The notes beneath the pieces are model-generated. The model ran no database searches. It was not told the DNA's origin and saw only the letters and a program-made list of their open reading frames with translations. DNA of 64,000 bases, from NCBI GenBank assembly GCA_964453435.1, contig CAYVQZ010000002.1, positions 20,555 through 84,554 on the forward strand, written 5' to 3'. The position numbers and the translations under genes were made by a program. This document shows, in pieces, positions 18,435 through 39,532 of the stretch; position 1 is the first letter of the stretch, and each line of letters opens with the position of its first letter. The DNA is from an uncultured bacterium. GTDB taxonomy: Bacteria; Abyssobacteria; SURF-5.

Positions 18435-18583
18435 TGTGCCGCTTCCTCCCTCCAAATCGCCGCACAGTTGTGCCTCGGGTGGGGAATGTTTTTCTCCCGT
18501 CATTTCGTTCCTGCCATTCTCATGAAAGTCACGACGAGAATTGACGGCCTTCGGGTTAGCAGGACGGGGGAGGGGATTGGAAA

Positions 18584-20596
18584 TCAAGGGTAATTGTTTC
18601 GGCCTCGTTTTAACACTTGGAAGCAGCCGAAGGAGACCTCCGGCTCATAGTTATCGTCAACTATCCGGGCGATTTGCGGGTATTGCGCAGCGAACCCCTG
18701 GTAGGAGAGCGCATCGTGCGGAGACGCGGGCACTCGCGAAAGGACAACGAACTTGGGGTTGCTCGCGCGCAGTTCCTCCGCCGTCCGCTCCACCTCCTCT
18801 TGAGAGAAATATCCGGGCCACAAATAAACGAATTTCGTGGGAGCGAGCCGTTCAGTGAGAAGGTTTACGACCGCAAGCGACGGGAGTCCGGCGATGGTGT
18901 CGTCCGGCTCCGTGTGTTCCTTTAAATAGCGTATAAGCTGACCGAACATATCCGCGTATCCCGTATCGAAAATTATCCCTGCTCCATCTGCATCGAGACG
19001 CGTGACATCCCGTCTTTCCACCGACCAGCCCCACGCGACCCGCTCGGTCTTGAGGAGCAGCCGTGCCGGACCGAACGCTCTCCCAAGAAAGAAGAGAAGC
19101 AGCGCAAGGACAAAAATGGTCTCCAAGCCGCGGTTCTCGCGTGACAAGCCGGTCTTTCTTTTGAGCCACCCTGCCCCTCGATGGATAAGGAAGAAGCTCA
19201 ACACGATCCAGGGGGCGAAACCAAAACCAAAGTGGTTGAGGTCCTGATACGGAAATGTTTGCTGCAGCATGAGGGAGGCATACATAAGAACAGAGAGAGA
19301 ACGGAAAGCCTCTTCGGTGAGTCCGTTCTCACGAACATGGCTCACGAAGAAGACTGCGTACGCCGCGACGACCACCACGGGAAGATACATGTACAGCTCG
19401 GGGTTCCATTGAGCCGACAACAAGAAATTCAGAGTAGTATTCGTGCAGAACAGGTACAGCAGCGCCGCGGTCAAAAGAATACCTGCCATCTGAACGCTTC
19501 TGCGGTTTTTCTTCCGTCGAGTCCAGAGAAAGCAAGCAATCGTCGCGAAAACGACAATCGTTGCGGGGAAGATGAGAGCGGATGAAGGAAGCCGCGGGAA
19601 CGGAACGACCATTTCTCTGAGTCGCCATGTTTCACCGACCAAAAGCACTTTCTTCAGTAAGCCGAGAGTGCCGAGTTCAAAGGAAAGAGGGATAAACCAG
19701 GGAAGTATTGCGCCCAGAAACCCTGCAGCGAGAAAACATTCATAGAGCAAGAGAGTCGTCGCTGACGGATTTTCGATTGGCTTGTCTCGTGAAATCCGGA
19801 AGACCGGGCAGACCCACAGCATGAGTCCACATGCCACAAGCGCCGGTGTCGTAAGCAAAAGAAAATTGTGGACCGTCCTTTCTCTCACGTACAGCATGGG
19901 CAGGACTGCCCCGAATACCACAACGAGAACGAGAACGAGAAATTTCGACAGCAACCCTTCCGCCGGATTCTGCTTGTTCTCTCCAACTCGCCAGAACACG
20001 CCCATCAAGCCGAACGCCGCCACCGCGAACACGCCGATGCTCTGTTTGAACGAAAAAGCCATCCCGGCGGCGATGCCGGCAAGGACGACGGGGCCGATGG
20101 CGCCTCTTTCAATTGCTGCCATGACGGCATAGAGTCCGCCGAGACCGATGGGTACCGCGTACCACGAACTGTACGGAATGTTGAGAATTGGCGGACCGAA
20201 GAAGACGAAGGCGAACGCACACCACACCGACAACCAGCGCGGCATCATTTTTAAACTGATCGCAAAAAGACACAGGCTCGACAGGAACCCGACGGCGGCC
20301 AGTCCGTATTTAACAGCCATGATACGCGCGCCGAAGGTTTTGAAGAGCAATCCGTTGACATAATAAACGGCGGGTGGCCAGAACGGGTCGAAATCGACAT
20401 AAGGAGTCTTTCCGAGGGAAAGCAGATAGGACTTGTAGAGGATGAAGCCTTCATCGGCGTGGTGCCACGTAACGGGAAAGGAGAGTTCGAAGGGAGCCAG
20501 CAAAACATATGCGCATCCAATGAGCGCGAACGCGAGAACGAGCGCAATATGTTTCATGCCCATAGGATGCCAACCAGTATGCCTGTTTTTGACCAA
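18584..20596 (-). CDS. GT-C superfamily membrane glycosyltransferase (ArnT/PMT, GT39/83-like)
   Basis: 670 aa with about 12 TM helices, the first-loop acidic motif WHHADEGF, and a C-terminal soluble domain ending ...PKFVVLSRV...FGCFQVLKRG that is paralogous to the C-terminus of 27956-30022. Confidence 0.7.
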   Translation of the reverse strand: MVKNRHTGWHPMGMKHIALVLAFALIGCAYVLLAPFELSFPVTWHHADEGFILYKSYLLSLGKTPYVDFDPFWPPAVYYVNGLLFKTFGARIMAVKYGLAAVGFLSSLCLFAISLKMMPRWLSVWCAFAFVFFGPPILNIPYSSWYAVPIGLGGLYAVMAAIERGAIGPVVLAGIAAGMAFSFKQSIGVFAVAAFGLMGVFWRVGENKQNPAEGLLSKFLVLVLVVVFGAVLPMLYVRERTVHNFLLLTTPALVACGLMLWVCPVFRISRDKPIENPSATTLLLYECFLAAGFLGAILPWFIPLSFELGTLGLLKKVLLVGETWRLREMVVPFPRLPSSALIFPATIVVFATIACFLWTRRKKNRRSVQMAGILLTAALLYLFCTNTTLNFLLSAQWNPELYMYLPVVVVAAYAVFFVSHVRENGLTEEAFRSLSVLMYASLMLQQTFPYQDLNHFGFGFAPWIVLSFFLIHRGAGWLKRKTGLSRENRGLETIFVLALLLFFLGRAFGPARLLLKTERVAWGWSVERRDVTRLDADGAGIIFDTGYADMFGQLIRYLKEHTEPDDTIAGLPSLAVVNLLTERLAPTKFVYLWPGYFSQEEVERTAEELRASNPKFVVLSRVPASPHDALSYQGFAAQYPQIARIVDDNYEPEVSFGCFQVLKRGRNNYP

Positions 20597-20625
20597 CCGT
20601 GTTTGTCGGAGCCTTCAGGAGGAAA

Positions 20626-22458
20626 TCATTCAATGTAGCCAAGAGCCTTCAATTGATTCGAGAGCTCGTCGGTAAGTTCCCTTCGAATTGCGGGATGCCG
20701 ATTCATATTCTTTCGAAAATCTTCTGCCATCCCCCTGTGTTTCTCCAAAATGTCCGGCTCCTGGTTGCTCAGATTCAGGATTTCCCGTGGATCGGACGCA
20801 ATGTTATAGAGCATTTCCTTATTCCGTTCCGTGAGGTTTATATATTTATAATCTTGCGTACGGATTGTATACATGTGTCCCATGGGTTCCGCGAGCGCAT
20901 TTTCCGAAAAACTGATAATGGTCCGGTTTGTGTCAGCAGCCTCATCCAAGAGGTCTATGAACGGCCGCGCCCGCAAATGCGCGGGAACATGAACGCCGGC
21001 CCATGTCAAAATGCTGGGCATGAGGTCCGTCAGCGAAACGGGTGAGCGAACCCTTGCGCCGGCGGAGAGCGATGGGCCCGTTAGTATGAGCGGAACCCGC
21101 ACCAGTTCGTCATACAGGGAATTTCCATGGCACAAAAGCTCGTGCTCGTAGAATCCTTCGCCGTGGTCGGAGGTTAATATGACCAGCGTGTTCTTTCGGC
21201 AATTTCCATCATCAATGGCGCGGAATAGCTCATTCAGTTTCGAGTCGACTTTCTCAATCCTTTCAATATATGCGGTCCGCAGACTGTCCAGCATTGAGTC
21301 GTCCACGGGCTGTCGAAATACTTCGGTTCCCCCGAGGTCAACAAAATAGTCGTGCACCTCATACGTGTGAATGAAAAGGAAGAACTCGCGTCGCGGGTCG
21401 TGTCTCTCGATAAATCTCGTGCCGTTTTCAATGGGATCGCCGATTAGCGCGTCCTCGAGAGGAGCGCTTGTGAAGGGGTGCTTGAACATGTGAAAACCTC
21501 GGTCGAAACCATAATTCGGGCTTATATAGCCGCCCCCCGTAAATGCAACGGTGTAATAGCCGTCGCCACGGAGTAGTTCAGCCATTGTGGGCACTTCGGA
21601 ACCTAAGGCCAGGACGGTCATATTATGGGTCGGATTCACGCCGTGTTCCGAGGGGGTCAGTCCGGTGAGCATGCTCATATGTGACGGGACTGTCCAGGGA
21701 GATGTCGAATATGCGCGCTCGAACAGCAGGCCGCCTCTCGCCATGTAATCGATTGACGACGAAACACCCAGCGATGCTCCATAGCAATCCAGGAAATCAG
21801 GTCGAAGAGTGTCGATAGATATGAGCACTATATTTCTGTTCGTTGCCTTCTTGACCGCGGACAGGGCGACCGGGTAACCAGTACTGATTCCTGTTCCGGT
21901 GAGAGCTATGGCAAGAAGGACAAGCACGCGGTGTAGGAATTTTGGGTTGAGCGCGCGGCGCATCGACGTAAGGGACGCATGGCGTATTTCGGGACGAAAC
22001 GTCATGAACAGCAGAAAGACGAACAGTGCGGGGGGAATGTTCATGAGTAAAGCGGAGAGGTATGCGTGAAACGCTTCGTTTATGACAACATGCCGTTCGA
22101 GCGCCGGTTGAGTCCACCAGATGAGGGCGGGCAGACACAGCGCGTGCAGCCGTCTCAACCGGGCGTCGTCCTCATGAACTTGTAACAAGTCAATTAGAAC
22201 GTGTCGGAGAAACCATATGAGGCTGGTGAAGAAGCAGGCGACTGCCATCCAGAGCAGCGCCATCCAAATCGCTTTTTCACCGCTGCTCATATACGATTGC
22301 TGAAAATGAGACCGCAACAAAACAGCCGGCGCAGTCGCAGACGCGAGTATCGCCATGGCGGCTCGACCGTTCACTCGCCATTTTTTCGAGTCAGTCGGTG
22401 GCAAAGTCTTTTCTCCTCCTAAGCGACCCTGCTCCTGTTCACAGACTCTGTGCCCCAC
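20626..22458 (-). CDS. membrane-anchored alkaline-phosphatase-superfamily 'sulfatase-like' hydrolase/transferase (Thr at formylglycine position)
   Basis: 610 aa with N-terminal TM helices and a sulfatase-fold domain (VLISIDTLRPDFLDCYG...YSTSPWTVPSHMSMLTG...TSDHGE). The FGly motif C/S-x-P-x-R is replaced by T-V-P-S-H. The C-terminus ...LKALGYIE is shared with the paralog at 32117-34336. Confidence 0.7.
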   Translation of the reverse strand: MGHRVCEQEQGRLGGEKTLPPTDSKKWRVNGRAAMAILASATAPAVLLRSHFQQSYMSSGEKAIWMALLWMAVACFFTSLIWFLRHVLIDLLQVHEDDARLRRLHALCLPALIWWTQPALERHVVINEAFHAYLSALLMNIPPALFVFLLFMTFRPEIRHASLTSMRRALNPKFLHRVLVLLAIALTGTGISTGYPVALSAVKKATNRNIVLISIDTLRPDFLDCYGASLGVSSSIDYMARGGLLFERAYSTSPWTVPSHMSMLTGLTPSEHGVNPTHNMTVLALGSEVPTMAELLRGDGYYTVAFTGGGYISPNYGFDRGFHMFKHPFTSAPLEDALIGDPIENGTRFIERHDPRREFFLFIHTYEVHDYFVDLGGTEVFRQPVDDSMLDSLRTAYIERIEKVDSKLNELFRAIDDGNCRKNTLVILTSDHGEGFYEHELLCHGNSLYDELVRVPLILTGPSLSAGARVRSPVSLTDLMPSILTWAGVHVPAHLRARPFIDLLDEAADTNRTIISFSENALAEPMGHMYTIRTQDYKYINLTERNKEMLYNIASDPREILNLSNQEPDILEKHRGMAEDFRKNMNRHPAIRRELTDELSNQLKALGYIE

Positions 22459-22499
22459 GGGTGCACATTTAACCGAAAGATGGGCATAGGAAAACCCGC

Positions 22500-22693
22500 C
22501 CCGGATTTACGGACCAAGCTTGTCGAGGTCGTACAATCGGGACTGAGTCCGTCCGATAATTCAATACGTGGTCGTTTGGCCAGGGGACAGTCCCCTTCGG
22601 GACAGTTTCACTGTCCCCTGAACAGAGAACCTCCATACGAAATTATCGGACAGTCTCCTTGTCCCCGAAGCGCGGATTGCCCAATCGCGGGTC
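22500..22693. repeat. dispersed intergenic repeat, family 1, copy B (contains GGGACAGTttcACTGTCCC hairpin and GTCCCCGAAGCGCGGATTGCC)
   Basis: Shares GATTTACGG...AATCGGGACTG with copy A and AATTATCGGA plus the CCCCGAAGCG core with copy C. It sits in the 270-bp gap between the SGNH-like and sulfatase-like genes of the same operon. Confidence 0.55.
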
Positions 22694-22728
22694 AGATACG
22701 TTTCCGTGATCCCTCTCTGCAAACCGAT

Positions 22729-23892
22729 TCAATTTCCACTCGGCGCTTCTTGCTGTCCTGATTTGTTTTTGAGCAGCGCCGCCACCACGGGAGCGAGCTT
22801 CTCGACAACCTTTCTGCCACCTTCCGGCGTGTAATGCTCAAGCCTGTCCCGAAACTCTTCCGGCTCGAGAAGGTCAAGCAGGTCGAGGAATACGCCGCCA
22901 TTCGAGGATACGATTTCTCGCATGCGCCTGATATTGTTTTTATAGAGTTTATCATCATACAGGCCGTGTTTCTTCAGTTCTTCGATGTTAATCGGTGTGA
23001 CGTATGCCACGAACGGTATCCCGGACCTTTTGAGGCTATCCGCCAATGCTTTGAGTGTGAGCATTTCCGTGTGGTCGGTGGGAATCTCGGCAGGGCATAG
23101 GCCCGACAGAATTTCAGGAGTGAGTTCCAGCTGGCGAAGCATTACGACGACCTGGTGTCCTTTTGTCCGCCTGACCGCGCCTTGCCGCGCCCATCTGACT
23201 TCGATAGAATCATTTCTGCGAAGCAATTGGATGAAAACATCCCTGACCCGGATTTTGACTCCCCGCACATAATACGTTTCCCAGAACTCGGCTTTCAACT
23301 TCAAGCGGTCGCCAAGGCTGAAATTTTCGATCTTGGCCGGACTGTCAATCCCCTCGCTCAGGCTTTCCTTGAACGGCGCAAAAAAGATAAGCTCGCGTCC
23401 CTGGATTGCGCCGTTCTCATCGCGCATGTCTTTCTGTCCTTGCCATCCAAAACGGCGGTAGTTGATGTTGAAGATTACGAGAGCAGGCGAGTATTCCCTC
23501 GCTTTGCAGGTAAGGCAATAGTAGTGAAACAGGGAGGCCCTGCCGAAGGCCCAGTCGATTATCTTTACGGAGGTCTCGCCGTATTCGTCCGCCAGTTTCT
23601 CTTGCAGAACCATGGGTGGGGCCACATCATTACCCAATAAAGCCACTGTTGAATCACCAAAATAGAATATGCGCTTCTCGCTATCCGGCACAAGACGAGG
23701 CAACTGATGGATAGACAATAATACTTCGTTATACGGTTTGCCCAGCCCGAGGTATAGCAACGCCGTTCTCATTCCAATGCTGCACAGAAGAATCAGGTAT
23801 ATCGTGGCAATTGAAAGCAGGTAGAAGAAAAGAGTGCGCCCGGGGTTGAAGCCGACTCTTTGCATCGGGTTCGGGTTGTTCTTTGCCAACAT
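22729..23892 (-). CDS. membrane-anchored SGNH/GDSL-like hydrolase-fold protein (probable MBOAT partner, AlgJ/AlgX/PatB-like)
   Basis: 387 aa with an N-terminal TM helix, a block-I IFYFGDSTV (GDS), and a conserved FHYYC segment. It is paralogous to 30048-31133 (VIFFGDSSL...FHYYC...EHYSLEGRK) and lies 8 bp downstream of the MBOAT gene. Confidence 0.6.
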   Translation of the reverse strand: MLAKNNPNPMQRVGFNPGRTLFFYLLSIATIYLILLCSIGMRTALLYLGLGKPYNEVLLSIHQLPRLVPDSEKRIFYFGDSTVALLGNDVAPPMVLQEKLADEYGETSVKIIDWAFGRASLFHYYCLTCKAREYSPALVIFNINYRRFGWQGQKDMRDENGAIQGRELIFFAPFKESLSEGIDSPAKIENFSLGDRLKLKAEFWETYYVRGVKIRVRDVFIQLLRRNDSIEVRWARQGAVRRTKGHQVVVMLRQLELTPEILSGLCPAEIPTDHTEMLTLKALADSLKRSGIPFVAYVTPINIEELKKHGLYDDKLYKNNIRRMREIVSSNGGVFLDLLDLLEPEEFRDRLEHYTPEGGRKVVEKLAPVVAALLKNKSGQQEAPSGN

Positions 23893-23900
23893 GGCGAAAC

Positions 23901-25316
23901 CTAAAACTGGAAATAGATGAAACGCTGTTCGGTTGTGAAGAATACATAGATCGCGATAGTCACAACCGCGTAGGCAAAACCCTTGACCGGCGAGGGCAAG
24001 CTCAGGAACCGCTCTTCCACCTTAACTTTTCCCCGAATGAAATGGCTCGCCGCCGCGATGGCCAGCATAATCATCGTAGGCATAAGGGTTACCGTTGCCG
24101 CCCGTTCGAAACCAAACAGGTTCCGAATTATGGTCTCAAAATCCCCGAGCGACTGCGCCCTGAAGATGCTCCAGCCCAAGCAGACGAGATGAAAGGTGAA
24201 CACAATTTTGATAGCCGGCCACATTCTCCACGCGCGAGCCTTCTGAAGAAGAGGAATCTCGAATAATTCCAGGTGGCGTTCCACCAGCAACAGGACGCCG
24301 TGATAAAGTCCCCACAGCACGAAATTCCAGCTCGCGCCGTGCCAGAGCCCGCCTAACAGCATGGTAATCATAACATTTATATACGTCCGTGCGCGCGTGC
24401 CACGATTTCCGCCAAGGGGGATGTACAGATAGTCGCGCAACCACGTGGAGAGCGAGATATGCCAGCGTCTCCAGAATTCGCGGAAGGTTTTCGCCAAATA
24501 GGGAAGATTGAAGTTCTCCGGAATTTCAATGTTCATCACATTCGCCAGTCCGATTGCGATGTCCGAGTACCCGGAAAAATCGAAATATATTTGGAACGCA
24601 TACGCATAGATGGCGACAAGGGTCGCGACAGAACCATACTCGCTCGGACTCCCGAAGACGAGGTCGACATGCCGTCCGAGAAAATCGGCAAACACGACTT
24701 TCTTGACGTATCCCTGGGCGATGAGGAACATTCCACGCTCCATCAATTCGGGGCGTTGGCATCTCTTCATGCTCAATTGCGGAAGCAGATGCCGCGCCCT
24801 GACAATCGGGCCGGCGACAAGCTGAGGAAAAAAAGCGACAAAAAGGCTGAAATTGATGAAGTTCTTGGTTGGCTTGAACTTCTTATAATAAATATCTATC
24901 GTGTAGCTCATGGTCTGGAACGTGTAGAACGAGATGCCCACGGGCAAGACGACATCGAGTTTCCAAGTGGCGGCGCTTATCCCATAAGCAGCCATGAGGG
25001 TTTCGACATTATCAACGAAAAAATTATAGTATTTAAAAAAGCCGAGCAGGCCAAGATTCACGGCGACGCTCAGGAAAAGATAGAATTTCCGCGCTCGCGG
25101 ATTCTCCTCGCTCTCGAGGCGAAGCCCGCAATAATAGTCGACGACGGTGGAGGTGAATATCAAGGATAGAAATTTATAGTTCCACGAGCCATAGAAAAAG
25201 TAGCTGGCGGCGAGAAGCATGAAATTCTGATAGCGAAGTGGCGACTTGGCAAGCAGGAGATATAAGAGGTAGACCCCGAGAAAGAAGATAATAAATTCCA
25301 TCGAATTAAACAGCAC
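23901..25316 (-). CDS. MBOAT family membrane-bound O-acyltransferase (AlgI/DltB/PatA-like)
   Basis: 471 aa with FWRRWHISLSTWLRDYLYIPLGGNR containing the conserved catalytic His. The multi-TM sequence resembles AlgI/DltB throughout. Confidence 0.85.
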   Translation of the reverse strand: MLFNSMEFIIFFLGVYLLYLLLAKSPLRYQNFMLLAASYFFYGSWNYKFLSLIFTSTVVDYYCGLRLESEENPRARKFYLFLSVAVNLGLLGFFKYYNFFVDNVETLMAAYGISAATWKLDVVLPVGISFYTFQTMSYTIDIYYKKFKPTKNFINFSLFVAFFPQLVAGPIVRARHLLPQLSMKRCQRPELMERGMFLIAQGYVKKVVFADFLGRHVDLVFGSPSEYGSVATLVAIYAYAFQIYFDFSGYSDIAIGLANVMNIEIPENFNLPYLAKTFREFWRRWHISLSTWLRDYLYIPLGGNRGTRARTYINVMITMLLGGLWHGASWNFVLWGLYHGVLLLVERHLELFEIPLLQKARAWRMWPAIKIVFTFHLVCLGWSIFRAQSLGDFETIIRNLFGFERAATVTLMPTMIMLAIAAASHFIRGKVKVEERFLSLPSPVKGFAYAVVTIAIYVFFTTEQRFIYFQF

Positions 25317-25485
25317 TTTTATTCCTTCCGGATTGGGGGTTCAATGACACAGGTGAATAATAGGCGGGAAAATGGTAGCGCTTCGGTGCAGCATATTCTA
25401 TGACACGACGTCGAGAATAAAGTTTTCCGCTTCTATCTTCTTCAGCTCCAAAACTCTCATGGCTTGTCGCTCCCATGGTTTGTTG

Positions 25486-27858
25486 TCAAGAGCCCCTTTC
25501 CGCAAGGAAGTCGATGTCCATTATCTGAACGTCCGGACCATTACGGAAGAGCGGAAATTCGATCAAGGGCAAATCGTCACTCATAATGGGCGCGCCTTCG
25601 GCATATTCTCTCGCGTCATCTTCTTCGAGCAGAAGCAGTGACAATACCCGCGGACCATCTATTAAGGTACTCGAATACAGGGACAGGTCTTTCTTCACGG
25701 CCTCCCTTTGAAAATACTCATTGAAGGAAGCATCGTCTATTTCCAATGTCTCTTGCGTGCCGATGAGATAGGCGCCTATCCTGTTGGGTGAGTTCCATAC
25801 CGTGGTGTGCGGAAATACGTCCATAAATGTTGCGACCTGCATCTTAAATTGGTCTTCAGTGAAACAATCGAGCAAAGTTGGGAGCCATTGACAAACGATT
25901 CCCCCGGGATTCAGACGCTCTTTGCAGAGAGCATAGAATTCCCTGGTATACAGATTTACCGTTCCCGCGCTCCACGGCGGGGGTGGCGGGTCTACTGTGA
26001 TTACGTTATAGGTCTTATCCGAGAGCAGAAGATAATTTCTGCCATCGGCGATTATGGTCCTCACTCCCGGTTCATTCAGCATCTCGGGGTCCTTCTGAAA
26101 ATACGCAAACGCTTCAACCACAAACGGGCACAATTCCACCAGGTCAACCTCCAAACCTGCTCTTCTTGCCGACACGAATGTCGAACCCATCCCGAAACAG
26201 ATATTTAGGAGTGTTCTAGGTTCATCTAGCAAAGCTATGGGAAGATGCGCCATCAACTGCGTCTCGCTGCAAAGGACGGTCATGGACACGCCATTCACAG
26301 ATAGTATTTTCATTCCATTGGCGTTTTCCACAACGGCCACCGCCGCCGTGGGGTCTTCCTTGAAGGCAAGCACTCTTCCCGACTCGTTCTTCAGGCACCT
26401 GAGCGAAAGCTCTCTCATCATGTCGTTGCCAAATGCGAAACCGGCAATGGGTAGAATCAAAAAAGAAGCCGCGGCCCAGTTCCACACGGGAGCCCCTTCT
26501 CGCCTTATAGATAAAATGAGAAGCGACAATCCGACACAGAAGCTTAAAAGCACAAGAAGGAGAACGCTGTTTTTTGAGCCGAGCAACGGGATAAGCACGA
26601 ATCCTGCGACGAAAGACCCGACGATTGCTCCCAGCGTATTGACGGCATAGAGCGATCCGGTTTCTGTTCCAATCGTGTTCAGACTTTGGGTATACACCCG
26701 GACCGCGACCGGGAACGTAGCCCCCATTAACAATGTCGGGGCCAGGACCACTGCAAACGTGCTCAGGAAGTTCGTATGCAAATAATTTCCGGGTGACAAT
26801 TGCAGCGAATATTCCTGAAAGGGCATTTTTTGAAACAAAAGCAGACCTGCAAGCGCGCTCAAACCGATGGCTAGTTCGAGCCATCCGAATACTTCGAGTG
26901 GTCTCTTCAATTCGTCGGAGATTCTGGCGAAGAGCAGACTCCCTGCCGTTAATCCCAGAAGATATACCACCAGGATCATCGAGAACGAGTAGATTGAACT
27001 GCCGAGGAGAAACACCAAAATGCGCGTCCACATAACCTCATATGCGAGCGCCAGCATACCGGATAGTCCGAAGGCCACCAGCACGAACCTCAGGTTGCCA
27101 CGGGTATAGCGGGCTATGTCTGTCGGACTTTTCAACGCGTGTGATTCCTGTCCGACCTCCGGGAGATGACCATGACTGCGATGCAGCCAGAAGGCAACCA
27201 GCCCAACCAGCACATTTATCGACGCTGCCAGATGCTCCGAACGACTGATTCCTATCCAACCGAGAAGCACAAAGCCGGCAAGGAAACATCCGGCAACAGC
27301 GCCGAACGTGTTAACCGCGTAAAGCGAACCTATCCCAAATCCCGTTTTCCGGAAATGAAAAACGATAAATTTCGACAGCACCGGCAGCGTTGCGCCCATC
27401 AGTGTTGTGGGCACCAGCAGCACGGCCGTGCTGAAGAAGAATCGCACAAGGCTCAATGCGTAATTCGACGCTTCGGTAGCGTTGTAAAGGAAGCGGTATA
27501 CTGGAGTAAGCGTAGAGAGCACAAGAGGGATAAGAACGGCTGAAACGCCTATGCCGATCTCGAGCCAGCCGTACATTCGGATCGGGTCGTCTCGTTTGTC
27601 TGCGAACCGGCCGAACAACATGCTGCCCAAGGCCAGACCGCCCATGAATGCGACCAGGACCGTGCTGACAGAATATACCGTATTTCCGAAAATGAGGGTG
27701 AGCCTGCGAGTCCAGGCTATTTCGTAGATAAGAGCGCACATGCCCGAGAGAAAGAAAAGGGGGAAAAACACGCCTGTGCCAGGGCTGAGGCCGTATCCTG
27801 GGGGGAGTGGCGTCGGTGTTCGGGCGAGATCGGGCTGCGTCAATGGATTGCTTTTCAT
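25486..27858 (-). CDS. fused MFS-like membrane domain / spermidine-synthase-like aminopropyltransferase
   Basis: 790 aa. Two internal membrane repeats (ALIYEIAWTRRLTLIFGNTVYS...; ALAYEVMWTRILVFLLGSSIYS...) are followed by a C-terminal SpeE-like Rossmann domain (LNICFGMGST...DVFPHT). Confidence 0.75.
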   Translation of the reverse strand: MKSNPLTQPDLARTPTPLPPGYGLSPGTGVFFPLFFLSGMCALIYEIAWTRRLTLIFGNTVYSVSTVLVAFMGGLALGSMLFGRFADKRDDPIRMYGWLEIGIGVSAVLIPLVLSTLTPVYRFLYNATEASNYALSLVRFFFSTAVLLVPTTLMGATLPVLSKFIVFHFRKTGFGIGSLYAVNTFGAVAGCFLAGFVLLGWIGISRSEHLAASINVLVGLVAFWLHRSHGHLPEVGQESHALKSPTDIARYTRGNLRFVLVAFGLSGMLALAYEVMWTRILVFLLGSSIYSFSMILVVYLLGLTAGSLLFARISDELKRPLEVFGWLELAIGLSALAGLLLFQKMPFQEYSLQLSPGNYLHTNFLSTFAVVLAPTLLMGATFPVAVRVYTQSLNTIGTETGSLYAVNTLGAIVGSFVAGFVLIPLLGSKNSVLLLVLLSFCVGLSLLILSIRREGAPVWNWAAASFLILPIAGFAFGNDMMRELSLRCLKNESGRVLAFKEDPTAAVAVVENANGMKILSVNGVSMTVLCSETQLMAHLPIALLDEPRTLLNICFGMGSTFVSARRAGLEVDLVELCPFVVEAFAYFQKDPEMLNEPGVRTIIADGRNYLLLSDKTYNVITVDPPPPPWSAGTVNLYTREFYALCKERLNPGGIVCQWLPTLLDCFTEDQFKMQVATFMDVFPHTTVWNSPNRIGAYLIGTQETLEIDDASFNEYFQREAVKKDLSLYSSTLIDGPRVLSLLLLEEDDAREYAEGAPIMSDDLPLIEFPLFRNGPDVQIMDIDFLAERGS

Positions 27859-27955
27859 TTCTTCAGGTAGTTACAAACGAAGTTTTGAACACATCAGCCT
27901 TATGGAAAAGTTAGCTGATTCAAGACGAAATTATATTCGAGACGATTGAACAAAG

Positions 27956-30022
27956 TCAAAGAGTGGCAGGTTCGGCCGATTGGATTTCGCTTTGTCTCGA
28001 TTGAAGAATCTGAAAACGTCCGAACTGTTGGGTGGGACCATACTGAGATTTGAGAATAGCGGCGGTTTTCGGCCACGCGTTGAGAAAACTGTTCGTTTCC
28101 ACATCGTCAATCTGTTGAATCACAAATCGGGGCTTTGTGCGAATTAATCTTCGAGCCATCTCCTCATCGTCGAATCCAAGTCTTCCACTTAGGTTCAAGA
28201 AACCGAAATTGGACAGGTATGCGAAGTAATTTTCCTTTGAAAGAACGCTGTCGCGTTCGGAGAGAAAATAGATGATCTGGTCCTCGCATATTACGAATAT
28301 AGGCTGATCCGGTTCCACATGGCTACGAATAAATTCGATTGTGTCATCCAGGTCAACATACTGTTTGACCACATGGAGCTTCACACCCCGCGCCCTGGGC
28401 GATTTCAGCTCGAAAAAGGAATGAAACCGCAGTCCTTCCCCCTCCTTCTTCAAGGGAACCGGCAGACTCTGTAAATAAAACACTTTCAAGCTCCAGAGAA
28501 AGGGCAGGATAATCAAACATGCACCCGCCGCCACCCATATTGCACCCAGGCGTGTCTTTCTCTTGAAGAGGTGGCTGGCGGTCTGATTCAGCTTCCATAA
28601 CAAGAAGCCAATCAACACAAATATCACTGTGCTGTTCATCAGAAAATGCACCTCATCGCTTCGGGGAAACGCCAGAAGAAGAAAGAGCGAGGAGAATGTG
28701 CAGCAGAGAAATAGGAGGAGCTTATACCTGGCCTCCTCGGCTTCTTCGTCCCTGAGCTTGGCAAACACGGGAAACGCCGCCAGCAGGCTCAGAGTCCAAA
28801 GCGTGTGAGTGATGCGCGCGCGCCATATTACGAACGGTGTCTCGCTAAGAAATATGTATGCCGTTGGCCCCAGCAAGACCGCGAGCACCAACAAAAAAAA
28901 ACGCAATTCTCCGCCTCTGCTGCTTTTGCTTCGCCTCATTCCCGCAATGGAGAAGACGAGACCACAGAGGAAAACGACTGCTATAAGCAACGCATGAAAA
29001 CGGTGCTCGTACATAGGCCAATAGTAATTTATGGAAAATGGCAGCACGAAAGTATCATAGAACAGCTCCTCGAGTCCTCCCGCTTTCCAATAGAGCAGAA
29101 ACTCCAGTAAGAGTATAGAGGCCGGGCCCAGAGCCAGCAAGCCGATTTCCCCCATGAGACATCTGAACCCGCTATGGCGGCGCCATCCCTCTCCGGACAC
29201 GGCTCCTCCCCGAAGCGCGGCAATTTCTCCCGCCAGCATGGGGCTGAGAAAAAGAAAGAATGGAAGCAGAAATATGCCAAAGTAGTATATGTCAAGACGA
29301 TATCTCAATAAGTACAGAGCGAAACTGCCCGCCACACCTATGATGAGAGACAATTTGAGAATTCTGCCGAAAAGAAACCCGGCACCCTCGGCGTAAACCC
29401 CCTCCTTTGGGTATTCGTCGCCATCCGCGAAAAGCTGTTCTCTGTAACACAAAAACAGAACCAGTCCCACGAGGATAAAGATTCCGGCGGGTAACTTGAA
29501 AAGCAGGGCCAACCCCCCGCAAAATCCCGCCGCCAGAAGGAAGCGCTTCTTGTCGCTCTGCAGAAAAAGGATGCTGCAAAGTATCGCAAGAAGCCCCAGA
29601 AAATGAGCGCAATGACTTCCGTATAAAACATTGAAAACGCGATGTAACGCATCTCCCCAACAGAAGACAAAAAGCGCTGACGCCAAAAACGCAAACCGAT
29701 ACGGCATCAGTTCGCCTGCAATCCAGAAAATAAACACCGCCATGAGCGCTTTCATGACGATAAGAAAAATCCTTATGACTATGATTTTCTCCCCAAATAA
29801 TTTAAAAAGGCCGCCGCCCGCGAAGTAGACGCCCGGGCCGTAGATATCGTAGAAATCCCGATGCGGAAGCTGGTCGCGAGAAAACTTTTCGAAATTGTAT
29901 AGCAGGTAGCCCTCATCGAAAGTATCGAGTCCGCGATTCGCTGTAAGAGAAAAATAGCCGCTCGCAAGCACCGCAACGAGCACTGTAAGGACCACAAACT
30001 TCCAGCCCACCTTCTTGTTCAT
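27956..30022 (-). CDS. GT-C-like membrane glycosyltransferase, paralog of 18584-20596
   Basis: 688 aa, multi-TM, with a first-loop FDEGYLLYN motif and C-terminal domain KPRFVIQQ...FGRFQILQ that aligns with the C-terminus of the other GT-C-like protein. Confidence 0.6.
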   Translation of the reverse strand: MNKKVGWKFVVLTVLVAVLASGYFSLTANRGLDTFDEGYLLYNFEKFSRDQLPHRDFYDIYGPGVYFAGGGLFKLFGEKIIVIRIFLIVMKALMAVFIFWIAGELMPYRFAFLASALFVFCWGDALHRVFNVLYGSHCAHFLGLLAILCSILFLQSDKKRFLLAAGFCGGLALLFKLPAGIFILVGLVLFLCYREQLFADGDEYPKEGVYAEGAGFLFGRILKLSLIIGVAGSFALYLLRYRLDIYYFGIFLLPFFLFLSPMLAGEIAALRGGAVSGEGWRRHSGFRCLMGEIGLLALGPASILLLEFLLYWKAGGLEELFYDTFVLPFSINYYWPMYEHRFHALLIAVVFLCGLVFSIAGMRRSKSSRGGELRFFLLVLAVLLGPTAYIFLSETPFVIWRARITHTLWTLSLLAAFPVFAKLRDEEAEEARYKLLLFLCCTFSSLFLLLAFPRSDEVHFLMNSTVIFVLIGFLLWKLNQTASHLFKRKTRLGAIWVAAGACLIILPFLWSLKVFYLQSLPVPLKKEGEGLRFHSFFELKSPRARGVKLHVVKQYVDLDDTIEFIRSHVEPDQPIFVICEDQIIYFLSERDSVLSKENYFAYLSNFGFLNLSGRLGFDDEEMARRLIRTKPRFVIQQIDDVETNSFLNAWPKTAAILKSQYGPTQQFGRFQILQSRQSEIQSAEPATL

Positions 30023-30047
30023 TACTGCTTGCCCTCTCGGGGAAAGG

Positions 30048-31133
30048 TCATAATTTCCCCCCTTCTTCGAGCATTGCGATTACTTTGGTTGACAGCCTCT
30101 CCGCTATTATCTTCCGCCCTTCAAGCGAATAATGCTCCATCTCGTCAACAAAATATGGCTCGCTGAGAACGTCAGAAAGGTCGGTCCAACAGCCCCCTTG
30201 CTCTTGAATCGCCTTCAATATGCCGTCCTTCGACCTCTCGAACGAACGATGGTCCATGATGTCGAGTTCTTCGAGGAGCGTCTGGTTTATCGGATTGATA
30301 TAGAAAAGAATCCTTACTTGGTGTTTCCGGCCAACCTGGATGATGGCCCGAATATATCGGAATATCTCGTGTTCCTCCGTTATGTTCATGGGATAGGCGG
30401 CTCTGAGGAAACCGTGGTCATGGTCGCGCCTCGGGACGAAATCGAGGCTGCCGTCATCCGCCGCCTCCGATACCCGTCGCGAGGCGCGCGCAATCGCAAC
30501 GTTGGTCCCATTTATGGCCCATTCCTTGAAGCCCATCGGATAGAGGGAAAAAATTTGAATCTCATATCGCAATTGTTTCTTATGGGAAATCCCGTAGGGT
30601 CGAAGCGGATTTTCTGAATCGAGGAGGGAGAGCGCCGGAACAAGCGCGGAAAGTTCCATAAATTCGTCTTTGGCCAAAGCTTTCCAGACAGGGCTGAGCG
30701 AGTTCCAGTTGATGGGGATAATCACGAGGTCAGGCGAAAAGTCCATCGCTTTGTAAAACATACAATAATAGTGGAACATATTCGCAGAGGCAAAAGCCCA
30801 TTCTGCAACCCCGATTCGCACGTAGGGGTGTCTGGAGGAAAGAGATTCCTGCAAAAGCAGTGGAGTATGTGTGTGAGCGGCGTCTGAATCGGCTCGCCTG
30901 TCCGGAGGATAGAACAGGCTTGAGTCGCCGAAAAAGATTACCTTTATGGGGAAGCCTCTTTGCAATTCTTTTGTGGCATATCCCGTAAAAAGGATGGAAT
31001 AAGGTTTTATGTCACCCGCAAATTTGGCGAACAACTCGCATCGAATTGTCAGTGCCGTCAATAGAAAAAGGCAGACCAGATAATAAACTCCGACCCATGT
31101 CGCCTTTGACCTTGCCTGTATCCGATGCTCCAT
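30048..31133 (-). CDS. membrane-anchored SGNH/GDSL-like hydrolase-fold protein, paralog of 22729-23892
   Basis: 361 aa with an N-terminal TM, VIFFGDSSL, WAFASANMFHYYCMFYKAMDFSPDLVII and EHYSLEGRKIIAERL, all matching blocks in the paralog. Confidence 0.6.
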   Translation of the reverse strand: MEHRIQARSKATWVGVYYLVCLFLLTALTIRCELFAKFAGDIKPYSILFTGYATKELQRGFPIKVIFFGDSSLFYPPDRRADSDAAHTHTPLLLQESLSSRHPYVRIGVAEWAFASANMFHYYCMFYKAMDFSPDLVIIPINWNSLSPVWKALAKDEFMELSALVPALSLLDSENPLRPYGISHKKQLRYEIQIFSLYPMGFKEWAINGTNVAIARASRRVSEAADDGSLDFVPRRDHDHGFLRAAYPMNITEEHEIFRYIRAIIQVGRKHQVRILFYINPINQTLLEELDIMDHRSFERSKDGILKAIQEQGGCWTDLSDVLSEPYFVDEMEHYSLEGRKIIAERLSTKVIAMLEEGGKL

Positions 31134-31633
31134 TGCCGGCCCATGCCCCTCGGAAAGGGGGATTTATCGACGGGGCGAAGACTGGGGCTATGCAGGACCG
31201 AATGCATTTTCTTTTGTCTCCGAAGACGCCTTTAACGCAAAAATCCAGAAAAGAATCGGGCCTGTATTCTTTCTTGCTGTAAGTTCTCCCTGGTCCTCTT
31301 CGTCCGATTCACGCGTAAATAGATGCCTAGCCGCAAGATTCGGTCATTCTGATTCCGGAGAAAACTCTCCTCCTGCGCCTCGTGCTCCAGCTTATCCACG
31401 TATTCGTTTGCCTGCTGCCGAATTCTCTGGTGTTTCAGTTCCCCCCGAAACTAATTCCAGGCTCAACATCATGATGAAATAGCGCGGAACGCCGTTCTTA
31501 CACCTTGCCCGTTTCCCGGCAACATCGTACCATACGCTTATTGGCTAAGGCAAGGAATAACAAGAAGATTCGCAATCCATCCTGCCCTTTTACCACGGAG
31601 GACACTGCGCGGTGTAACCGCAACCAAACTACA

Positions 31634-31925
31634 CAGGGAGACCACGAATTACACAAATTACACGAATGAAAGTTCTCTTCTTTTCATTCCCGCGAAAGCA
31701 GGAGTCCAGGAAAAGATTTCTTGAGCCGCAAAGGCTTGAAGGGCGCAATGGAAGGCAGAAAGAAAATTGACCACGGGGAGGGTGGCGTGACACGGGGAAA
31801 GGCCGTGAAGATTAGCAACGGATTACACAGCGCGGCACAGCCGCACCCAAAAACCAAAGAAACTCCCGGAACACGAAAGACACAAATCGTGCGAATGTCA
31901 CGAATGAATAGTTCTTTCTTGGTGA
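31634..31925. repeat. direct repeats ACACGAATGAA(A/T)AGTTCT(C/T)TTCTT about 240 bp apart, plus TTACAC-N3-TTACAC, in a 983-bp divergent intergenic region
   Basis: CACGAATTACACAAATTACACGAATGAAAGTTCTCTTCTTTTCATTC at about 31634-31682 contains the hairpin GAATGAAAG...CTTTTCATTC. A second copy, GTCACGAATGAATAGTTCTTTCTTGG, is at about 31895-31925. Confidence 0.45.
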
Positions 31926-32116
31926 TTCTCGCTGGCTGACTCCCGAAGCAGTATTTTGATACAAATCGGCGAGTGATATATACTGGGAAGACAAGAATAT
32001 GCTTTTGCTGAATTTTCATGCCGCGAAGCCCTCTTGGGGAGAGGTCTCACATGCCCGTGCTCTTTATGGGTTATACCGACATACGCTCTTTCACGAGGGT
32101 CGCATTATGAGGCTTC

Positions 32117-34336
32117 TTGAGGCCGAAGATATGTAAAAGGCTGTTGCAGCGCAGGGGTTTTCTGATGGAGCAGACCAAGAGGGTCGTTGGCACAACCTTT
32201 CTTCGTTCTCTGGTATTGGGGTCGACAACCGCGATTGTCTATTTCGCTTTCGAGTTCTTTTTCGTCACTCTTGCAGGCGCTCATATCCGCATCGAGTACA
32301 TGCTTCTTGCTTTTGGAGCTTACCTGGGAATCGGCCTGGTTCTCGGGACCGTTATCGGGTTGGGAGTCGGCTGGCGGACAGACCGGAAAACCAGTGGAGA
32401 GGTGTCGATTTCACTGTCATTTTATCACATCTTCGGCTTCCTTGCTCTGTTTGGCTTCTATCTATTCTTCCAGCATCCCCTGGTGAGCATGCGTCTTACG
32501 TTTCTGCAGAAATCCGCCGCAAGTTTTCTCACCGCGGTTTTTTTATTTGCGCTGGCATGGTGGTTGGCAAAAAAGCCGATTCCGCGGAAAATGCCGTTCC
32601 GGGCCACATGTGCTTCATATGGGGTCGGCATCACCGTTGTTTGCGAATTGGTTGCCGGCGGAAGATATCTGAACGAAGAATATTTGCCCCTCTTTTTCGG
32701 CTCGCAATCGATTCTGATAAACATGTTCGTGCTTTGCGCCGCCGCCGCCATTTTCTTTATCGGAAACATGTATGCCACTGGTCGCATTACGCCTGCCGGC
32801 GGAAAGGATATGGGAGCCGCTCTCATACCTGCAAGCGTTGCGTTGGTCTTCCTTGTGACAACTGCATATCATCCTCTGGAGAAATATGAGATGCGGATTC
32901 GGCCAGTCAAGAGAGAGGCGGCTCCAACGGAGCGGCCGAATGTGATTCTAATCTCAATTGACACAATTCGCCGCGACCATCTTTCGGTGTATGGATATGA
33001 GCGGGAGACTTCCCCAAACCTGGATGCCTTCGCCACCGACGCGGAAATCTATGAGAATGCTATCTCCAACTCCTGCTGGACGCTGCCCTCCCATGCGTCC
33101 ATGCTGACCGGACTTCACACGAGCGCGCATGGCGCCCACGTGGTAACCGATGCTTTCGAAGGGCTGAGCAAGGCCGATTCCAGCCGGATACCCAGCTTTG
33201 TCGGCGCCGCCCCCTTACATCCCGAATTCGTTACCCTGACGGAAATTCTGAGAGAAAACGGATATGCCACCGGCGCCATTGTCGGAAATTGCACGTATCT
33301 GTACAGGGCATTCGGATTGAATCAGGGATTTGATTACTACAACGACCTCGAAGGCATGCGAATAAAGTTTCCACCGGTATTCGAACCGTTTCGGGTCAGG
33401 TTCTTCACCGAATTTCTTTCTCACCGTTTCAAATGGTATCGAGATGCAGAGGAGGTCAATGAAATCGTATTTGCTTGGATTCACGCTAATCGGCGGTGGC
33501 CGTTTTTTCTTTTCCTGAATTATAATGATCCTCATAGCCCTTACAGCGCGCCGCCGCCATACAACCGTCTCTTCCCCGGAAAAATCTCGAGTCGCGCTTT
33601 GAATGAGTCGGAAATCGTTCGGGCGTTGCGCGCGATGGAGAGAGAGCTCACAAGAGAGGAGAGAGAGCATTTTCTCTCACAGTACGACGGCGAGATTAAC
33701 TATATGGACCATCATCTTGGCCGTCTTTTCAGTTACCTCAAGGAGACGAATATTTATGAAAATTCGCTAATCATTGTGGTCGGCGACCATGGCGAGGCGT
33801 TTGGCGAGCATCTGGCGCTCGGGCACAGGCATAGTCTCTATGAGCCTGAAGTGAGAATTCCCCTCCTGGTAAAACATCCCGAAGCGGCCAGCAAAGGGCG
33901 GAGAGTTGAAGCCGCGCAACCAATAGATATTTTGCCGACAGCGCTTCATATAGTCGGTGTGCCGCTGCCGGCAGGTCTCGACGGCCGCTCGCTGGGGAGT
34001 GCGGAGGCCGATCAAACACTGCCGATGAGCGAGTATTACGTCTTTCAAGATGGTGTTGCGATGTCGCGGGCACGAGTCAACAGATGTATAAGAACCATTT
34101 ACGACGGCAGGTATAAATATATATGGAATTCCGATGCGCCGGACGAGTTGTATGACCTGAAGGCCGACCCTGAGGAAAAAAATAACCTGGCGACGCAGTT
34201 GCCCGACATTGCAGAAACGTGGAGGACTAATCTGGAAGAGCGTCTGGGCCCGCCGCGGTTTCGACCGCAACAACGAACAGGCGTGGCGGATAAAGAGGCT
34301 CTGGACCGGTTGAAGGCCGTCGGGTACATCGAATAG
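32117..34336 (+). CDS. membrane-anchored alkaline-phosphatase-superfamily 'sulfatase-like' hydrolase/transferase, paralog of 20626-22458
   Basis: 739 aa with an N-terminal multi-TM region, VILISIDTIRRDHLSVYG, NSCWTLPSHASMLTG (T-L-P-S-H in place of C-x-P-x-R), VGDHGEAFGEH and the C-terminus LKAVGYIE. The likely start is ATG 32165 (MEQTKRVVG). Confidence 0.7.
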   Translation: MRPKICKRLLQRRGFLMEQTKRVVGTTFLRSLVLGSTTAIVYFAFEFFFVTLAGAHIRIEYMLLAFGAYLGIGLVLGTVIGLGVGWRTDRKTSGEVSISLSFYHIFGFLALFGFYLFFQHPLVSMRLTFLQKSAASFLTAVFLFALAWWLAKKPIPRKMPFRATCASYGVGITVVCELVAGGRYLNEEYLPLFFGSQSILINMFVLCAAAAIFFIGNMYATGRITPAGGKDMGAALIPASVALVFLVTTAYHPLEKYEMRIRPVKREAAPTERPNVILISIDTIRRDHLSVYGYERETSPNLDAFATDAEIYENAISNSCWTLPSHASMLTGLHTSAHGAHVVTDAFEGLSKADSSRIPSFVGAAPLHPEFVTLTEILRENGYATGAIVGNCTYLYRAFGLNQGFDYYNDLEGMRIKFPPVFEPFRVRFFTEFLSHRFKWYRDAEEVNEIVFAWIHANRRWPFFLFLNYNDPHSPYSAPPPYNRLFPGKISSRALNESEIVRALRAMERELTREEREHFLSQYDGEINYMDHHLGRLFSYLKETNIYENSLIIVVGDHGEAFGEHLALGHRHSLYEPEVRIPLLVKHPEAASKGRRVEAAQPIDILPTALHIVGVPLPAGLDGRSLGSAEADQTLPMSEYYVFQDGVAMSRARVNRCIRTIYDGRYKYIWNSDAPDELYDLKADPEEKNNLATQLPDIAETWRTNLEERLGPPRFRPQQRTGVADKEALDRLKAVGYIE

Positions 34337-39480: not shown

Positions 39481-39532
39481 AGAGGCGCCGCTTCACGTGG
39501 TCTCGGGGTGAACCGTTAGCAACGAAGGAAGG

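Follow-up and report, generated by a model that had tools for sequence, protein, structure and literature searches.

What would a bacterium do with a membrane-bound O-acyltransferase (MBOAT), two SGNH-like proteins, two GT-C glycosyltransferases and two "sulfatase-like" enzymes of the alkaline phosphatase (AP) superfamily gathered in one block of genes? We address this question for positions 18584-34336 of a 64,000-nucleotide stretch of contig CAYVQZ010000002.1 (the window), from an uncultured bacterium of the Abyssobacteria lineage SURF-5. Drawing on sequence comparison and a predicted fold, we read this locus, at a probability of roughly 0.6, as an extracytoplasmic glycan-decoration system that would work at the outward-facing side of the cytoplasmic membrane, analogous to the tailoring of teichoic acids and of streptococcal rhamnopolysaccharide. 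The enzyme classes are familiar ones; their combination recurs in related uncultured bacteria and was not found described.

Genes of the locus

The block holds eight open reading frames (ORFs), all verified at the positions given by a preliminary description made from the letters alone, and the families proposed there (GT-C, SGNH-like, AP-superfamily, MBOAT and MFS/SpdSyn) were upheld by Pfam, NCBIfam and follow-up analyses. Seven of the ORFs are co-oriented on the minus strand while the eighth (32117-34336) is divergent, on the plus strand. The neighbouring genes on either side are unrelated: RecN and an FG-GAP protein to the left, NfeD and SPFH to the right.

18584-20596, minus strand: GTC_a, GT-C paralog with about 12 transmembrane (TM) helices and a C-terminal soluble domain; DEGF at 20444-20455
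20626-22458, minus strand: AP_a, membrane-anchored AP-superfamily enzyme on an arylsulfatase/phosphonate monoester hydrolase (PMH)-like scaffold; WTVPSH at 21679-21696 (Thr258 at the formylglycine position), ISIDT at 21808-21822, SDHGE at 21157-21171, LGYIE at 20629-20643
22729-23892, minus strand: SGNH_a, DltD-like SGNH protein with one TM anchor, 8 bp downstream of the MBOAT gene; FGDS at 23650-23661 (Ser81), DRLEH at 22834-22848 (His353)
23901-25316, minus strand: MBOAT of PatA/AlgI type with a built-in acyl-shuttle motif; catalytic His in RRWHIS at 24453-24470, C-terminal FIYFQF at 23904-23921
25486-27858, minus strand: MFS/SpdSyn fusion, MFS-like domain of about 13 TM helices joined to a spermidine-synthase-like class I fold; altered signatures CFGMGS at 26182-26199 and VDPPPP at 25978-25995
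27956-30022, minus strand: GTC_b, PMT_2-type GT-C with about 13 TM helices and a C-terminal soluble domain; DEGY at 29906-29917, PHRDF at 29852-29866
30048-31133, minus strand: SGNH_b, DltD-like SGNH acyltransferase or esterase with one N-terminal TM helix; FGDS at 30921-30932, DEMEH at 30132-30146
31134-32116: divergent intergenic region of 983 bp, the presumed regulatory or promoter region
32117-34336, plus strand: AP_b, AP-superfamily enzyme, transcribed divergently; WTLPSH at 33077-33094 (Thr324 at the formylglycine position), ISIDT at 32951-32965, GDHGE at 33782-33796, VGYIE at 34319-34333

An MBOAT carrying its own shuttle motif

In bacterial MBOATs with an SGNH partner, the C-terminus bears the motif FXYXXF on two helices that have no equivalent in DltB; the motif tyrosine is auto-acetylated from acetyl-CoA, and the acetyl-peptide then serves as donor to the SGNH partner (Anderson et al., PMC12148441). 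This acyl-tyrosine shuttle from MBOAT to SGNH protein has been demonstrated for PatA/PatB, whose N. gonorrhoeae PatA ends in FIYANF, and for DltX/DltD, in which FXYXXF is carried by the separate microprotein DltX (PMC12148441).

The MBOAT of the locus matches PF03062 at E 7e-27 (95 bits against a cutoff of 27). DltB is both its nearest solved relative (E 1e-32) and its best curated match, TIGR04091, which scores 191 bits (cutoff 375) and spans residues 92-386 only. Beyond the DltB-matching part lie about 85 further residues, with predicted TM helices at 406-424 and 444-462, that end in FIYFQF. Together with the MBOAT fold and its invariant histidine, this C-terminal FXYXXF on about two extra TM helices marks the protein as PatA/AlgI-type, and both the FIYFQF ending and the RRWH(I/M) histidine are present in all five full-length MBOATs that adjoin SGNH genes, that of the window and those of the related loci L011, L022, L023 and L026 (listed below). 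Orthology to DltB and the Dlt system was ruled out, as the equivalog cutoffs were missed and DltA, DltC and DltX are missing. No DltA-, DltC- or DltX-like ORF was found in or beside the locus, which we attribute to the shuttle motif sitting on the MBOAT itself; a search for small DltX- or DltC-like ORFs in the two largest intergenic gaps of the minus-strand genes (169 and 270 bp) gave only hydrophilic, unconvincing ones.

A DltD-like SGNH family outside the curated models

The two putative partners, SGNH_a and SGNH_b, matched no Pfam family. A word-indexed homology search returned one match with SGNH_a, namely itself, and two with a 47-sequence profile, while a profile run exhaustively against 1.84 billion cluster representatives returned 1,032 relatives at E <= 1e-3 (64 at E <= 1e-30). 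SGNH_b fits the family profile at E 1e-121, and its closest orthologue, at 42% identity, adjoins a YfhO GT-C gene in L024. Throughout the 47-sequence family alignment G79, D80, S81 and H353 are invariant and D349 nearly so. Faint matches to Pfam DltD (PF04914) were seen in 3/47 members (best E 8e-6), as were matches to Lipase_GDSL_2 (3/47); membership of the curated DltD equivalog TIGR04092 failed, at 15.5 bits against a cutoff of 150, and the family profile reached three DltD structures only at E 0.07-0.3.

Structure prediction was more informative. AlphaFold supplied with the two paralogs alone gave an unusable model (pLDDT 50), and the 47-sequence alignment was therefore used instead, yielding a model with pLDDT 89.4 and pTM 0.86 whose eight best Foldseek matches are all DltD. 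The family has the SGNH alpha/beta fold with the block I serine of GDS and the block V histidine, as well as a DltD-like architecture (N-terminal TM anchor, SGNH core and helical insert), DltD being the closest full-length architecture. Basic residues precede the one N-terminal TM helix of each paralog, so that the SGNH catalytic domain is predicted to be periplasmic. We conclude from sequence and model that SGNH_a and SGNH_b are DltD-like membrane-anchored SGNH enzymes, belonging to a sub-family that lies outside the Pfam and NCBIfam models.

By the same kinds of evidence, the MBOAT and SGNH pair is a hybrid of both known classes, joining a PatA/AlgI-type MBOAT to a DltD-type SGNH protein. 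The preliminary description had likened the pair, with its 8-bp gap, to PatA/PatB or AlgI/AlgJ; the gap is as described and the MBOAT is indeed of PatA/AlgI type, but the SGNH protein resembles DltD and not PatB or AlgJ. The underlying proposal of acylation by MBOAT plus SGNH protein becomes much firmer with the C-terminal FXYXXF and the predicted SGNH fold. The SGNH family is also multi-copy, with four genes each in Ca. Abyssobacteria SURF_17 and in bin co232_148, and only one adjacent MBOAT was seen per genome (SURF_17: L005, L011 and L012; bin co232_148: L007, L009, L010 and L026); one MBOAT may therefore serve several SGNH proteins.

Threonine at the formylglycine position of the AP-superfamily pair

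Both AP proteins match Sulfatase PF00884 over its full length (E 4e-42 for 20626-22458, E 6e-45 for 32117-34336), and the best sequence matches of their AP domains are arylsulfatases, PMHs and choline sulfatases (4upi, 7oz8 and 2vqr; E 1e-27 to 4e-34). Type I sulfatases carry the signature C/S-x-P/A-x-R, the source of formylglycine (PMC12421950). On alignment to 4upi and 7oz8, threonine falls on the formylglycine Cys/Ser and histidine on the Arg of this signature, the corresponding positions reading T-V-P-S-H in AP_a, T-L-P-S-H in AP_b and T-L-P-A-H (WTLPAH) in an L023 orthologue that is 35% identical to AP_b. With T-[LV]-P-S-H in place of C/S-x-P-x-R formylglycine cannot form, and true formylglycine sulfatases are ruled out on account of these two replacements. 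The Asp/Asp/His metal ligands of the sulfatase fold are kept in ISIDT and (S/G)DHGE, the D...DH of the PMH/SpAS2 type.

A threonine nucleophile is the hallmark of phosphoryl-transfer enzymes of the NPP, LtaS, GacH and EptA type. The alignment to sulfatase structures puts the threonine of the locus enzymes at the nucleophile position beside the metal site, where its catalytic use would be as a putative nucleophile; phosphoryl transfer or hydrolysis is the more likely activity on sequence grounds, and the phospho-group step that had been suggested as possible is compatible with such a residue. The known counterparts are T530 of GacH and T300 of LtaS, and GacH puts glycerol phosphate on an N-acetylglucosamine (GlcNAc) side chain (10.1101/337519). 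Membership of the corresponding NCBIfam families failed, all matches being short and partial (LtaS 34.8 bits against 970, EptA 49.4 against 561, CptA 37 against 404). A crude hydropathy scan predicts about 6-7 N-terminal TM helices in AP_b, about 3 in AP_a and 1 in the L023 orthologue.

The ending LKA(L/V)GYIE, previously remarked on as common to the pair, is present in both proteins. More generally, the C-terminal ending L[KR]xLGY[IL][EQ]-COOH occurs at 20629-20643 and 34319-34333 of the window and in L022:3668-5017, L023:5195-6622 and L024:4441-5328, spanning two Pfam families, Sulfatase-type and, in L022, Phosphodiest-type. As far as these sequences go, the tail seems to follow the system and not the catalytic sub-family.

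GT-C enzymes and a candidate donor synthase

GTC_b matches PMT_2 at 34.1 bits (gathering cutoff 26.1), is polytopic and carries an acidic first-loop motif, a combination that identifies it by sequence as a GT-C enzyme. PMT_2 is matched by 11/14 members of its family, in which D36, G38 and D56 of the DEG...D motif near the N-terminus are invariant. GTC_a has no direct Pfam match; it is homologous to GTC_b at both ends, fits the GT-C family profile at E 3e-182, and has a 53%-identical orthologue in L023. The closest orthologues of GTC_b are those of L002, L003 and L004, from other metagenomes, where two or three GT-C paralogs form an array together with a GT2-methyltransferase fusion.

At the left edge of the window (2-3731, minus strand) lies an unfused equivalent of these arrays, made up as follows:

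2-1000: GT-C-like fragment at the left edge of the window
1185-2812: two methyltransferases adjoining the GT2
2787-3731, minus strand: GT2 outside the locus, candidate polyprenyl-phosphate glycosyltransferase

The best PDB matches of the GT2 are DPMS (5mlz), GtrB (5ekp) and ArnC (9bhc/8vxh), at E 3e-15 to 1e-13, and its orthologues adjoin an SGNH gene in L009 (43% identity) and L022 (32%). Its start is uncertain (3536-3731) and probably lies near residue 66 of the longest ORF. The methyltransferases and GT2 noted earlier at this edge are solid, but the "third GT-C" said to accompany them is weak, with PMT_2 at 22.9 bits, below the cutoff, and no match to the profile of the locus GT-C family.

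Ancient paralogs and a recurring gene set

Three paralog pairs had been claimed within the locus, and BLASTP shows them to be genuine but distant, at 24-30% identity: the GT-C pair is 27% identical (E 3e-14 in the N-terminal part, E 5e-9 in the C-terminal part), the SGNH-like pair 24% across 359 aa (E 5e-27) and the sulfatase-like pair 30% across 469 aa (E 7e-43). SGNH_a shares 46-47% identity with orthologues elsewhere but only 23% with SGNH_b. The duplications are ancient, since each paralog of the window has closer orthologues elsewhere than its partner, and a recent tandem duplication of a triplet is ruled out for the same reason. The description of the locus as "built from paralogous triplets" accordingly needs revision: the pairs are ancient sub-families. 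The recurring unit, whose gene order varies, comprises GT-C genes, an AP-like gene and one MBOAT with one or two genes for DltD-like SGNH proteins; it is no duplicated three-gene module.

A search for related loci with a 13-sequence SGNH subset yielded 8 loci from genomes and 8, all short, from metagenomes. Related loci with the gene families of the window are as follows (percentages are identities to the window proteins):

L023, JGI 3300041084: GTC_a-like (53%); SGNH, GT-C, AP (35% to AP_b), MBOAT (71%), SGNH_a-like (46%), small ORF, YfhO
L022, JGI 3300062802: GT-C; AP (Phosphodiest), SGNH, MBOAT (40%), GT2, GT-C
L024, metagenome: SGNH_b-like (42%), YfhO, and further on an AP-like gene
L011, Ca. 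Abyssobacteria SURF_17: MBOAT, SGNH, SGNH, GT-C
L009, uncultured bin: GT-C, GT2, SGNH
L006, uncultured bin: GT-C; SGNH
L026 and L027, uncultured: MBOAT adjoining SGNH

The same gene families thus recur in independent metagenomic loci, in L023 and L022 and partly in L024, L011, L009 and L006. Neighbours were counted over the 11 SGNH-family loci outside the window that have informative flanks. GT-C genes occur in 6/11, L010 having besides a 13-TM neighbour without a family, and MBOAT genes in 4/11, plus L027; an MBOAT fragment lies on one of three short further contigs. The tight MBOAT-SGNH junction, 8 bp in the window, has counterparts in L011, L023 and L026. The preliminary description held that it would be refuted if neighbourhoods in related genomes never brought these genes together; they do come together, in independent loci. 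The closest orthologues of GTC_b in other genomes, by contrast, do not adjoin SGNH or AP genes.

Large polytopic proteins without a Pfam family (7-13 predicted TM helices, 556-643 aa) adjoin SGNH genes at L010:8003-9832 (minus strand), L006:5725-7656 (plus strand) and L011:12680-14350 (plus strand); these could be further unrecognised GT-C-like enzymes. In L011 of SURF_17, an FGE-sulfatase (SUMF1-like) gene lies at 5531-6598 (minus strand), about 700 bp upstream of the MBOAT-SGNH-SGNH-GT-C genes and oriented against them; L011 yielded no AP-like gene.

A probably accessory MFS/spermidine-synthase-like gene

The fusion gene matches only one curated model, the subfamily NF037959 for fused MFS/spermidine synthases (173 bits against a cutoff of 40), and misses every speE equivalog cutoff. 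The aspartates of GGGDG and D-S-x-D-P bind decarboxylated S-adenosylmethionine and the amine, and are the signature of aminopropyltransferases such as SpeE. On alignment to the SpeE structures 6o64 and 1inl, GGGDGG is replaced by CFGMGS, and DSSDP/DSTDP by DPPPP. No homologue of the fusion was found in any related locus. A true spermidine synthase is ruled out by the missing signature aspartates and by the absence of the gene from related loci, and the aminopropyl-group step once suggested is unsupported for the same two reasons; the gene is probably accessory and not part of the core. A promoter-like site lies beside it at 27959-27930, and a literature search on MFS/spermidine-synthase fusions found nothing relevant.

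Layout and transcription

Read from 31133 downward, the minus-strand genes are separated by 25, 97, 169, 8, 270 and 29 bp. The earlier remark that the gaps are small holds for 25, 97, 8 and 29 bp but not for 169 and 270 bp; because these two are big enough for internal promoters, a single operon is not established, and the genes may, to judge from their spacing, form two to four transcription units instead of one. Terminator-like sites occur at about the frequency expected from shuffling and promoter-like sites in excess, which does not resolve the transcription units.

The divergent intergenic region holds a promoter-like site at 31956-31984 on the plus strand and an element of about 55 nt in two copies, at 31634-31690 and 31872-31930. 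The core of this element is CACGAATGAA[A/T]AGTTCT, a pattern without further match in the window, and a regulatory role for the repeat is possible. Scanning 17500-35500, the element included, against Rfam gave no match.

The starts of AP_a, AP_b and GTC_a are uncertain, the longest ORFs of all three being missing from the protein collection. Logan assembly gene calls give AP_a 554 aa and GTC_a 659 aa. The true start of AP_a is probably the ATG at 22290 (554 aa), and that of AP_b is likely the ATG at 32165. If AP_a starts at 22290, a weak terminator-like hairpin at 22327-22310 falls between SGNH_a and AP_a. The GC content of the locus is 0.516 against 0.549 for the remaining window, with a minimum of about 0.50 at 24-32 kb, which could reflect membrane-protein composition or horizontal acquisition.

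Elsewhere in the window, the product of 9057-9953 (plus strand) is a DUF1559 (SBP_bac_10) protein whose N-terminus bears a prepilin methylation motif. Proteins of this prepilin-like type are very abundant in Planctomycetota and related lineages of the Planctomycetes-Verrucomicrobia-Chlamydiae (PVC) group, which hints at the affinities of the host. At 37867-41975 and 44752-45387 (plus strand) an AMP-binding ligase, HGD-D (2-hydroxyacyl-CoA dehydratase D-component) and an amidohydrolase form a group, followed at some distance by a multihaem cytochrome c; by their sequences, these genes suggest an anaerobe with acyl-CoA or aromatic metabolism.

Relation to known systems

Like PatA/PatB, AlgI/AlgJ/AlgX and WssH/WssI, the locus has an MBOAT whose extra C-terminal helices end in FXYXXF. 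It also shares with PatA/PatB-type systems an SGNH partner that has an N-terminal membrane anchor and is encoded directly downstream, and the need for neither carrier protein nor ligase; AlgJ/AlgX offers a precedent for two SGNH proteins per MBOAT. Unlike the partners in those systems, the SGNH proteins of the locus are DltD-like in fold, not PatB- or AlgJ-like, come from a family without a Pfam or NCBIfam model, and are coupled genetically to GT-C and AP-superfamily genes. With Dlt the locus shares the DltD architecture (TM anchor, SGNH core, helical insert), whereas it has no DltA, DltC or DltX, its shuttle motif is fused to the MBOAT, and the DltB and DltD equivalog cutoffs are missed; for these reasons the acyl group is probably not D-alanine.

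The closest analogy for the remaining genes lies with GacI/GacL/GacH, CsbB/YfhO and LtaS, in which a GT2 for the polyprenyl-phosphate-sugar is combined with GT-C transfer outside the membrane, as would be the case here. GacL, of the GacI/GacL machinery, is reported to attach the GlcNAc side chain (10.1101/180810), and tailoring by CsbB/YfhO is likewise reported (PMC5836110, PMC8035078). Further shared elements are the membrane-anchored AP-superfamily enzyme with a Thr nucleophile of GacH and LtaS (putative in the locus) and the YfhO-type GT-C genes of lipoteichoic acid (LTA) tailoring, which are present in L023 and L024. Unlike in Gac and LTA tailoring, the scaffold of the AP enzymes is arylsulfatase/PMH-like and not LtaS/GacH-like, the GT-C enzymes belong to the PMT_2 type, no flippase of GtcA, GtrA or GacK type was identified, an MBOAT/SGNH module is present, and the host is probably diderm. 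Type I sulfatases and PMHs are the nearest by sequence to AP_a and AP_b, and their D...DH metal ligands are common to both, but the locus enzymes differ from them in T-[LV]-P-S-H, in the membrane anchor and in the conserved C-terminal L[KR]xLGY[IL][EQ].

A proposed pathway and its alternatives

In the proposed system, the best supported step is acylation, which sequence and predicted fold both favour: an acyl group from acyl-CoA would be loaded onto Tyr468 of the MBOAT, passed from acyl-tyrosine to the catalytic serine of a membrane-anchored DltD-like SGNH protein, and delivered to the glycan. One MBOAT would probably serve both SGNH paralogs, along with further copies elsewhere in such genomes. 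The two GT-C enzymes would add sugars from polyprenyl-phosphate-sugar donors made by a DPMS/GtrB/ArnC-like GT2 such as that at 2787-3731. In the last and weakest step, the AP enzymes might form a phospho-threonine and add a phospho-headgroup to the glycan, in the manner of LtaS, GacH and EptA; alternatively, they may remove a phospho-group. The host would probably be diderm, PVC- or Hydrogenedentota-like.

Several points weigh against this reading. Soluble arylsulfatases and PMHs match the AP domains more closely (E 4e-34) than LtaS or EptA do (partial matches, E 1e-9 to 1e-13), which makes a hydrolase role for them equally possible; SGNH enzymes, too, can be esterases, and one paralog could remove acyl groups. 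That the acyl donor is acyl-CoA is assumed. The GT-C label of 18584-20596 depends only on homology to GTC_b, and comparing the GT-C family profile with solved structures by sequence found none. Among the informative related loci, AP-like genes occur in just 3/11 and no partner gene lies nearby in another 3/11 (L005, L007 and L012). Finally, the gaps of 169 and 270 bp leave shared transcription of the minus-strand genes unproven.

Could the genes instead modify lipid A or the lipopolysaccharide (LPS) core, with the GT-C enzymes acting as ArnT, the AP enzymes as EptA/CptA (phosphoethanolamine) and the MBOAT/SGNH pair O-acylating LPS? The window region resembles ArnT/EptA systems in uniting a PMT_2-type GT-C with an ArnC-like GT2 and an AP-superfamily enzyme predicted to be polytopic, in a probably diderm organism; the PMT_2 Pfam family also covers ArnT-like enzymes, one orthologue is labelled ArnT-like by JGI, and AP_b, with its 6-7 or so N-terminal TM helices, has partial NCBIfam matches to EptA (E 2e-13) and CptA (E 1.5e-9). 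However, the matches to EptA, CptA and MCR are all short, partial and far under cutoff, the whole AP domain is arylsulfatase/PMH-like, and the L023 orthologue has one TM helix only; arnA, arnB and arnD were not found nearby, nor any other arn genes; the locus also has an MBOAT/SGNH module, and we know of no MBOAT/DltD-type step in lipid A modification. We consider a lipid A role rather unlikely. It is quite unlikely, in turn, that the core is a PatA/PatB-orthologous peptidoglycan O-acetylation system with functionally unrelated envelope genes of GT-C and AP type beside it: FIYFQF and the FIYANF of N. gonorrhoeae PatA have FIY..F in common, PatB likewise has an N-terminal TM anchor (PMC12148441), and L026 and L027 show MBOAT plus SGNH alone, but the DltD-like fold and the genetic coupling set out above separate the locus from those systems.

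A more degradative role, in which the AP-like enzymes and one or both SGNH proteins would be phosphodiesterases or esterases remodelling an envelope polymer (compare the esterase Ape that accompanies PatA/PatB), overlaps the glycan-decoration model, differing from it only in the direction of some steps. We hold it improbable, as both SGNH paralogs are DltD-like, membrane-anchored and associated with an acyl-shuttle MBOAT, and AP_b has a predicted polytopic domain like those of LtaS, GacH and EptA, which take lipid head-groups (10.1101/337519). As for a mere chance cluster of abundant membrane-protein paralogs forming no functional unit, the closest GTC_b orthologues are indeed accompanied by nothing but further GT-C genes and a GT2-methyltransferase fusion, and such a cluster would also accommodate the three SGNH-family loci without partner genes and the two wide internal gaps. 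Yet the same four or five families surround SGNH genes in L022, L023 and L024 despite differing order and sequence (MBOAT 40-71% identical), tight MBOAT-SGNH junctions recur and GT-C genes stand in most of the informative loci; this very improbable explanation is already disfavoured.

Implications

Beyond the glycan-decoration reading itself, a more specific picture may be sketched, tentatively and as less likely than that reading: a Hydrogenedentota/Abyssobacteria-like diderm that builds a teichoic-acid-like glycopolymer or glycolipid bearing sugars, phospho-headgroups and acyl esters. In such an organism one FIYFQF MBOAT would act as the hub that feeds several DltD-like SGNH transferases, each of them genetically paired with its own GT-C and hence its own acceptor. 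The switch from formylglycine to threonine would have turned an arylsulfatase/PMH scaffold into a phosphotransferase, and the LGY(I/L)(E/Q) tail would serve, as an analogue of FXYXXF, for docking or as a shuttle peptide.

The preliminary description knew of no characterised system with exactly this arrangement, and a full-text literature search for the combination of MBOAT, SGNH, GT-C and sulfatase likewise found no paper describing it. The mechanism of envelope acylation by MBOAT and SGNH proteins is known (PatA/PatB, DltB/X/D), but the pathogens and polymers covered are few. To this the locus adds an SGNH family of about 1,000 cluster representatives outside Pfam and NCBIfam, in which a DltD-like architecture is combined with a shuttle-bearing PatA-type MBOAT, and it cautions that the annotation "sulfatase" is misleading here, the formylglycine motif being replaced by threonine. 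The repeated linkage of this SGNH family to GT-C enzymes, polyprenyl-phosphate GT2 enzymes and AP-superfamily enzymes suggests that uncultured, probably diderm phyla possess a counterpart of the Gram-positive tailoring of envelope polymers with sugars, phosphate and acyl groups.

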